From a virus (taxonomy: Duplodnaviria; Heunggongvirae; Uroviricota; Caudoviricetes): a DNA stretch of 36,109 nucleotides. Positions 1,473-2,297 of this stretch are shown here, in pieces. The stretch's first letter is position 1. Every line of letters starts with the position of its first letter. Made by a program: the position numbers and the translations under genes. The stretch lies in IMG/VR virus record IMGVR_UViG_641736116_000027, one strand, 5' to 3'. The notes under the pieces are model-generated. The model was not told the DNA's origin. It was given only the letters and a program-made list of their open reading frames with translations, and made no database searches.

Positions 1473-2297
1473 ATGCTGAGAAATGCAGTATTGAATTTAT
1501 CAATTTTTCACCAGCTTCTGGTCTTTCTGGCTGTCATGCGCAAAACATATGGCTTTAATAAAAAACTGGATTGGGTTAGCAACGAGCAACTTTCCGAATT
1601 AACCGGGATATTGCCGCACAAGTGTTCTGCTGCAAAAAGTGTTCTGGTAAAGCGTGGGATTTTTATTCAGAGCGGGCGGAATACCGGCATTAATAATGTG
1701 GTCAGTGAATGGTCAACATTACCCGAATCAGGTAAGAAAAATAAAGTTTACCTGAAAGAGGTAAATTTACCTGAATCAGGTAAAAAAAGTTTACCCAAAT
1801 CAGGTAAAGGCGTTTACCCGAATCAGGTAAACACAAAAGACAAACTAACAAAAGACAATATAAAACCTTTTTCGTCCGAGAATTCTGGCGAATCCTCTGA
1901 CCAACCAGAAAACGATCTTCCTGTGGTGAAACCGGATGCTGCAATTCAGAGCGGCAGCAAGTGGGGGACAGCAGAAGACCTGACCGCCGCAGAGTGGATG
2001 TTTGACATGGTGAAGACCATCGCGCCATCAGCCAGAAAACCGAATTTTGCAGGGTGGGCTAACGATATCCGCCTGATGCGTGAACGTGACGGACGTAACC
2101 ACCGCGACATGTGCGTGCTGTTCCGCTGGGCATGCCAGGACAACTTCTGGTCCGGTAACGTGCTAAGTCCGGCCAAACTCCGCGACAAGTGGACCCAGCT
2201 CGAAATCAACCGTAACAAGCAACAGGCAGGCATGATAGCCAGCAAACCAAAACTCGACCTGACAAACACTGACTGGATTTACGGGGTGGATTTATGA
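1473..2297 (+). CDS. O: replication initiator O-like, N-terminally truncated (C-terminal domain lambda-like)
   Basis: The C-terminal ~100 aa match lambda O as I recall it (WMFDMVKTIAPSARKPNFAGWANDIRLMRERDG...TDWIYGVDL). The N-terminal part aligns to lambda O only from about lambda residue 49, so roughly 36 N-terminal residues are missing. Iterons lie inside the ORF and its stop overlaps the P start (ATGA). Confidence 0.8.
   Translation: MLRNAVLNLSIFHQLLVFLAVMRKTYGFNKKLDWVSNEQLSELTGILPHKCSAAKSVLVKRGIFIQSGRNTGINNVVSEWSTLPESGKKNKVYLKEVNLPESGKKSLPKSGKGVYPNQVNTKDKLTKDNIKPFSSENSGESSDQPENDLPVVKPDAAIQSGSKWGTAEDLTAAEWMFDMVKTIAPSARKPNFAGWANDIRLMRERDGRNHRDMCVLFRWACQDNFWSGNVLSPAKLRDKWTQLEINRNKQQAGMIASKPKLDLTNTDWIYGVDL
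1719..1866 (+). repeat. ori-like iterons (five ~17-bp direct repeats) plus A-rich tract
   Basis: Repeats TTACC(C/T)(G/A)AATCAGGTAA at 1719-1735, 1767-1783, 1791-1807 and 1814-1830, with a degenerate copy at 1748-1764. Each has internal dyad symmetry (TTACC...GGTAA). An A-rich tract follows at 1831-1866. This mirrors lambda ori inside O. Confidence 0.7.

Follow-up and report, generated by a model that had tools for sequence, protein, structure and literature searches.

The window, by which we mean the whole 36,109-nucleotide stretch of DNA analysed here, contains close to its left end a cluster of short dyad-symmetric repeats inside an open reading frame related to the lambdoid replication gene O. 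The locus raises the question of whether these repeats are a replication origin and, if they are, whether that origin can still be used. We consider it likely, with a probability of roughly 85%, that the repeats are the initiator-binding iterons of a lambdoid origin within O, that the A-rich tract beside them is its unwinding element, and that in the prophage in which they lie, Sp8, this origin is orphaned and likely silent. We assign the repeats to an origin because of their position, their architecture, the co-variation of iteron sequence with the N-terminal domain of O, and the reading of the repeats in two frames.

The window corresponds to prophage Sp8 of E. coli O157:H7 and adjoins icd, which is the neighbouring gene in O157 genomes. 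Positions 1-3323 are 100% identical to the Sp8 prophage located next to icd in Sakai, and positions 4634-36109 are 99.9% identical to it. The 274-amino-acid O reading frame of the window is the same as Sakai ECs_1611. The features near the origin are the following.

1-1143 and 1133-1369, minus strand: phage-21-type integrase and excisionase genes, respectively, identified by Pfam.
1463-1508, plus strand: terminator-like hairpin (16 pairs) with a T-run, AT-rich, at the xis-side edge of the deletion described below.
1473-2297, plus strand: 5'-truncated O gene, a pseudogene (ECs_1611 in Sakai), with a reading frame open for 274 codons.
1509/1510: deletion junction, about 7.09 kb having been lost relative to the intact relative Lambda_4C10.
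1719-1735, plus strand: iteron 1, TTACCCGAATCAGGTAA, the extra copy, farthest from the A-rich tract and without a lambda or P22 counterpart.
1748-1764, plus strand: iteron 2, TTACCTGAAAGAGGTAA, degenerate, at the position of lambda iteron ITN1.
1767-1783, plus strand: iteron 3, TTACCTGAATCAGGTAA, a perfect palindrome with its flanks.
1791-1807, plus strand: iteron 4, TTACCCAAATCAGGTAA.
1814-1830, plus strand: iteron 5, TTACCCGAATCAGGTAA, adjoining the A-rich tract.
1831-1872, plus strand: A-rich, strand-asymmetric tract (76% A+T), a DNA-unwinding element by homology.
2294-2995, plus strand: P, a full-length lambda-type helicase loader (Pfam Phage_lambda_P, E = 9.5e-62).
2992-3294, plus strand: ren, annotated as 'protein ren' in identical sequence.

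A 17-bp unit, TTACCYRAAWSAGGTAA, is present in five copies on the plus strand, all of them within 1719-1830, and the start-to-start distances are 29, 19, 24 and 23 bp. The first-pass annotation had described four near-perfect repeats and one degenerate repeat, each with dyad symmetry, at 1719-1866, and both the description and the interval proved accurate. The dyad arms TTACC and GGTAA, arranged as half-sites TTACC-N7-GGTAA, are found in every copy (5/5). Four of the five copies are near-perfect, the degenerate one being copy 2, and copy 3 together with its flanks forms a perfect 9+1+9 palindrome (TTTACCTGA A TCAGGTAAA). We searched the 36-kb window with a degenerate iteron pattern, allowing up to two mismatches, and obtained eight strand hits, all of which fell at the five sites; the same search found no such repeats elsewhere in the window. 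For the chance baseline we used 100 dinucleotide-preserving shuffles, from which 0.04 hits would be expected, and none of the shuffles (0/100) reached eight.

The iterons are translated in more than one frame. Copies 1, 3 and 4 encode LP(E/K)SGK (LPESGK or LPKSGK) in one frame, and copies 2 and 5 encode VYLKEVN and VYPNQVN in another. Because the same unit is read in two frames, it is kept at the level of the DNA and not as a peptide repeat.

The repeats are followed, as had been noted earlier, by an A-rich tract. Between 1831 and 1866 the plus strand is 67% A and 75% A+T, compared with 48% A+T for the whole window. This tract contains two ACAAAAGACAA repeats (1833-1847 and 1848-1862), which are also found in P22, phage 2851, Klebsiella phage GZ7 and E. 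coli KFu024; in P22, repeats of this type fall within the annotated rep_origin.

The gene content around the repeats agrees with the lambdoid layout that had been proposed, in which the origin lies inside O. The reading frame at 1473-2297 matches Pfam Phage_rep_O (PF04492, E = 3e-19) over its residues 13-80, and the iterons encode residues 83-119, just after the match to the N-terminal DNA-binding domain of O. In a protein alignment, the columns of the iteron-coding part coincide with the annotated iterons of phage 434, and iteron 1 corresponds to a 10-codon gap of 434 O, that is, to exactly one additional iteron. The retained N-terminal part is approximately 40% identical to the lambda-type O of 434, and the protein from SSENSGESS onward is 97% identical to it, which bears out the earlier description of an O with an N-terminal part unlike that of lambda and a lambda-like C-terminus. 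The lambda-type P gene lies directly downstream of O, with its start overlapping the O stop codon. A search for a PDB homologue of O gave no hit at E ≤ 0.01.

Origins are annotated at the same place of the homologous gene in the curated records of phages 434 and 21 and in the RefSeq record of P22. The lambda, 434 and 21 origins resemble that of the window in lying within O, in having dyad-symmetric iterons of similar size, and in having an A-rich tract on the right; such a tract follows the iterons in all types compared. Four iterons with a spacing of 20/24/23 are found in lambda/434, P22 and phage 2851. Phage H-19B has six, the last three spacings being 20/24/23, and Klebsiella phage GZ7 and the window have five, spaced 29/19/24/23. 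The x/24/23 part of the spacing is present in every type compared (lambda, H-19B, P22, 2851, GZ7 and the window), and for the four copies nearest the A-rich tract the difference is between 20/24/23 in lambda and 19/24/23 in the window.

The sequence of the iteron varies with the type of N-terminal domain in O. It is ATCCCTCAAAACGAGGGA in lambda, TTTACCAGATCGGTAAA in P22, ATTAGCCAAGTCGGCTAA in phage 2851 and TTACCCGAATCAGGTAA in the window, so that four N-domain types have four iteron sequences, and the iteron is, as had been stated, not that of lambda. Lambda iterons have the form TCCCTC-N5-GAGGGA, in contrast to TTACC-N7-GGTAA in the window; there are four of them in the lambda type, whereas the window has five and an extra 10 codons; and the N-terminal domains of the two types are only 40-46% identical. 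The window also differs from lambda in that its O is truncated and in having lost the early region upstream of it, with cI, cro and presumably pR. Farther to the right, the window and lambda/434 are alike. Homology to phage 434 DNA (94% identity) begins at about 1821-1831, at the last iteron, and covers the A-rich tract, and a lambda-type P and ren are located downstream. Among the phages compared, the C-terminus of O is lambda-like wherever P is present.

The closest classical relative of the N-terminal domain is P22 gene 18 (55% identity), which has the TTACC/GGTAA half-sites in common with the window. The A-rich tract of P22 contains ACAAAAGACAATA repeats that are nearly the same as those of the window, next to iterons spaced 20/24/23. 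Unlike those of the window, the P22 iterons number four and have half-sites separated by 5 bases instead of 7, and the O-like protein of P22 is partnered with a DnaB-type helicase (gene 12) and not with P. Phage 21, which the first-pass annotation had suggested for comparison, has an origin of the lambda type, and P22 gene 18 is the closer relative. Phage 21 was also rejected as a donor of the origin: although int/xis of the window shares 99.5% identity with that of phage 21 (record M61865), the phage 21 iterons are lambda-type. A literature search on the origins of phage 82 and phi80 found only work on lambda and the Stx phages.

The co-variation of iteron and N-terminal domain agrees with the published view that different O-family proteins recognize different iterons, each set located within the gene of its own protein (PMC8022706), and with the two-domain model of lambda O, in which a dimer is placed on each iteron and the protein binds DNA with its N-terminal domain and P with its C-terminal one (PMC6022878). 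By analogy with the lambda paradigm, each dyad-symmetric iteron would be occupied by O dimers that contact it with their N-terminal domain, and the bound dimers would together form a bent nucleoprotein complex, the O-some. Opening of the A-rich tract beside the iterons would follow, and the lambda-like C-terminus of O would recruit the P-DnaB complex. The origin itself lies in the linker-coding middle of O. We conclude that the window origin is a distinct specificity type, with TTACC-N7-GGTAA half-sites in five copies, inherited together with its own O N-terminal domain.

Additional iterons are also present in the Stx phages H-19B, 933W and P27, which have six. In these phages, as here, the additions are distal to the AT-rich tract and lengthen O in frame. 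The Stx iterons are of the lambda type in sequence, and there are two extra copies compared with one in the window. Only the four proximal iterons of the Stx phages are strongly bound, and the distal ones are still needed in vivo (PMC7466680); by analogy, these distal iterons would be a plausible model for iteron 1 of the window. Iteron 1 is kept at the identical 29-bp spacing in Klebsiella phage GZ7.

The same five iterons with the same spacing are found in PhiR34_1, 4A7, Lambda_4C10, Perceval, Turner and Klebsiella phage GZ7. It had been argued beforehand that the absence of such repeats from close relatives would point to a coincidence of coding sequence; all close relatives examined have the five repeats, and P22 has four homologous ones. 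Over the iterons and the A-rich stretch, PhiR34_1, in which O is intact, is 100% identical to the window, and Lambda_4C10 differs by one base. Over the longer interval 1509-2300, the intact phages with this origin are 96.8-99.2% identical to the window. In these intact relatives O is full-length (309-339 amino acids) and comes after a repressor gene, cro and, immediately before O, a third gene (called 'cII' in some records).

Klebsiella phage GZ7 is unlike the window in that the module is joined to a DnaC-type loader. The window-type iterons are unchanged in GZ7 (79% protein identity) and in KFu024, despite the DnaC-type loader and a different C-terminus of O. In both of these (GZ7 1052-1200; KFu024 1201-1600) the five-iteron module is found with a DnaC-type loader, and divergence from the window begins right after the A-rich tract, which places the origin core at the recombination joint of two exchangeable modules. 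Mosaic joints thus flank the A-rich tract, with lambda homology starting at the last iteron and GZ7/KFu024 divergence starting after the tract, and this arrangement illustrates the known two-module design of O.

The gene that carries the origin is not intact in Sp8. The first-pass annotation had referred to an O protein; membership of the O family holds, but the gene is a 5'-truncated pseudogene without its native start or upstream region. Homology to intact phages starts only at 1509-1510 of the window. In an alignment with Lambda_4C10, which carries the same phage-21-type int/xis and the same O as Sp8, the left arm matches up to Lambda_4C10 position 1770 and ends just past xis, and the right arm matches from Lambda_4C10 position 8856 and starts inside O, so that the deletion has brought int/xis directly against O. 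The genes lost are exo, bet and gam (recombination genes), the repressor gene cI, cro, and the gene directly upstream of O, which is named 'cII' in PhiR34_1 and 'toxin YdaT domain-containing protein' by PGAP. The rightward early promoter pR was presumably lost as well. The deletion junction was found in 296 complete genomes and is essentially confined to them; O157:H7-type strains account for all 25 of the best matches listed.

The number of O codons removed is 47 if counted from the lambda-equivalent start, or 77 if counted from the annotated start, placing the fusion at codon 48 or 78, respectively. The O sequence proper begins at 1510, and codons 1-12 of the reading frame are unrelated to O and derive from the xis side of the deletion. 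The Phage_rep_O profile is matched at positions 28-95 by the Sp8 reading frame (70 bits) and at positions 1-95 by intact O proteins (116-130 bits); Sp8 O is therefore without 27 of the 95 conserved-domain positions (28%) and keeps the other 68. PGAP calls the gene a pseudogene, 'incomplete; missing N-terminus'. This annotation is in conflict with the Sakai record, where ECs_1611 (14823-15647) is listed as an intact 'phage replication protein'.

Expression of the truncated gene also appears to be compromised. The hairpin at 1463-1508 covers the ATG at 1473, which is the sole available start codon of the reading frame. In the parent phage, this hairpin sits between xis and the next leftward gene. 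A simple consensus scan found no sigma-70-like promoter within 1100-3400, and a weak or read-through transcript over the truncated O, beyond the reach of such a scan, is possible. Some residual activity of the truncated product is conceivable from its sequence, given that the frame is open and that 68 of the 95 domain positions are kept. The cis-acting site itself is intact but orphaned. Because O is truncated and the repressor/cro region and presumably pR are lost, the origin cannot fire by itself, and most likely it has persisted through descent as a silent remnant.

Origins of this type are common. The iteron-bearing segment was detected in 2452 of 5426 complete E. coli genomes (~45%), the intact 5' end of the window's O type in 2285 complete E. 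coli genomes, and the window-type origin segment in at least 15 deposited phage genomes. Some O157 genomes have two copies of the iteron region. In three O157:H7 genomes, NZ_CP062702 (strain Z1834), NZ_CP038339 (H6437) and NZ_CP062763 (Z885), an intact 5' end of this O type is located at another locus, at about 1.79-1.87 Mb, so that these strains may contain a cognate initiator alongside the orphan Sp8 origin. The iteron string itself was found in no searchable paper, and the literature search turned up neither a description of this origin type nor an experiment on its iterons.

Several other readings of the locus were weighed against that of an orphaned, silent origin. The repeats could in principle be a coding repeat, specifying a linker peptide, or a product of chance, with no role in replication, and they do lie within an open reading frame and in a low-complexity, lysine-rich segment. 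We give this reading almost no credence and regard it as effectively refuted, because one and the same unit yields unrelated peptides in two different frames. In addition, every unit is palindromic, the chance expectation is 0.04 hits, and homologous arrays with conserved spacing but a different sequence are present in every O type examined, including the annotated origins of 434, 21 and P22. That the origin still works in cis, with the 274-amino-acid product as a functional initiator and Sp8 replicating under other conditions, seems to us highly improbable. The open frame, the retention of profile positions 28-95 and of the whole P-binding part, and the intact P gene are compatible with such activity, and a 2009 study of O157 defective prophages scored the Sp8 replication genes as conserved, with O and P 'apparently functional' in silico (PMC2669165). 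However, 12 unrelated codons stand in place of the 47-77 N-terminal ones, the Pfam score falls from 116 to 70 bits, the scan found no promoter-like site, and a 16-pair hairpin encloses the start codon. The deletion has also taken away cI, cro, the gene at the cII position and presumably pR, and O is annotated by PGAP as a pseudogene. Furthermore, the same study found that Sp8, which is without cI and cro, undergoes no circularization, replication or packaging after mitomycin C (Asadulghani et al., PMC2669165). The loss of the regulators, and not the truncation of O, could also be the reason why Sp8 did not replicate in Sakai.

It is unlikely, though less so, that the orphan origin acts in trans, either being fired by a cognate O, with amplification of the icd region in situ, or titrating that O. 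The source of O would be a second prophage, as in some O157:H7 strains, or a superinfecting phage of the 4A7/PhiR34_1 type. If this were the case, amplification of icd-Sp8 could help to mobilise Sp8, the morphogenesis genes of which are reported to be intact, and a decoy site could interfere with phages that share its replicon type. An intact phage carries the site with 100% identity, and the intact 5' end of this O type in Z1834, H6437 and Z885, like the second iteron-region copy in some O157 genomes, would be consistent with such a role. Plasmid-borne ectopic lambda origins are reported to inhibit cognate phages (PMC4488673, PMC3349717), but the site considered here is chromosomal and in single copy. 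In Sakai, neighbouring prophages have been documented to undergo regional replication; no amplification of Sp8 was seen there. Lambda-type origins need nearby transcription in cis, and no promoter is evident at this site. Nothing points to selection beyond descent, the deletion allele being found in the 296 genomes described above, the 25 best matches listed among them all O157:H7-type.

Outside the origin region, the window is set apart from Sakai Sp8 by an IS insertion of 1310 bp, private to the window, and by a 4-bp frameshift in a ybcK-like gene. The insertion (3324-4633) is an IS3-family element resembling IS629/IS1203, with ends TGAACCGCCCCGG, orfA at 3378-3704, orfB at 3701-4591 and a 3-bp duplication, GTA. 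It lies between ren and emrE and is absent after ren in Sakai Sp8, and a search of 5426 complete E. coli genomes did not find the ren-IS junction. The ybcK-like serine recombinase gene (5252-6778) has a 4-bp deletion (GCTT) near 6320 relative to Sakai ECs_1615 and is split by the frameshift into reading frames at 5252-6379 and 6403-6774; it is likewise annotated 'frameshifted' in strain TR01. The SMR efflux gene emrE (4654-5007), just downstream of ren, has the same location in PhiR34_1 and Lambda_4C10, both of which are intact, and therefore belongs to the usual cargo of this group of phages rather than being peculiar to the remnant. The window and Sakai Sp8 differ at 30 bases, 23 of which are clustered in about 570 bp (32185-32753). 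This stretch takes in lom (31949-32548) at its 3' end and the side tail fibre gene (32607-35528) at its 5' end, and the clustering suggests a small recombination patch. The downstream genes rusA, ybcN, ninE and Q presumably indicate kinship to phage 82 and to the K-12 cryptic prophage DLP12.

An origin of this kind is a textbook element, the prophage has been published, and the relic state is ordinary prophage decay, so that the origin relic matters little beyond annotation. For Sp8 itself, the identification of ECs_1611, annotated as intact, as an N-terminally truncated pseudogene provides a sequence-level reason, besides the missing repressor and cro, for the failure of Sp8 to replicate. For the lambdoid phages, the five-iteron TTACC-N7-GGTAA origin type is a possible natural specificity variant for studying how O recognizes iterons.
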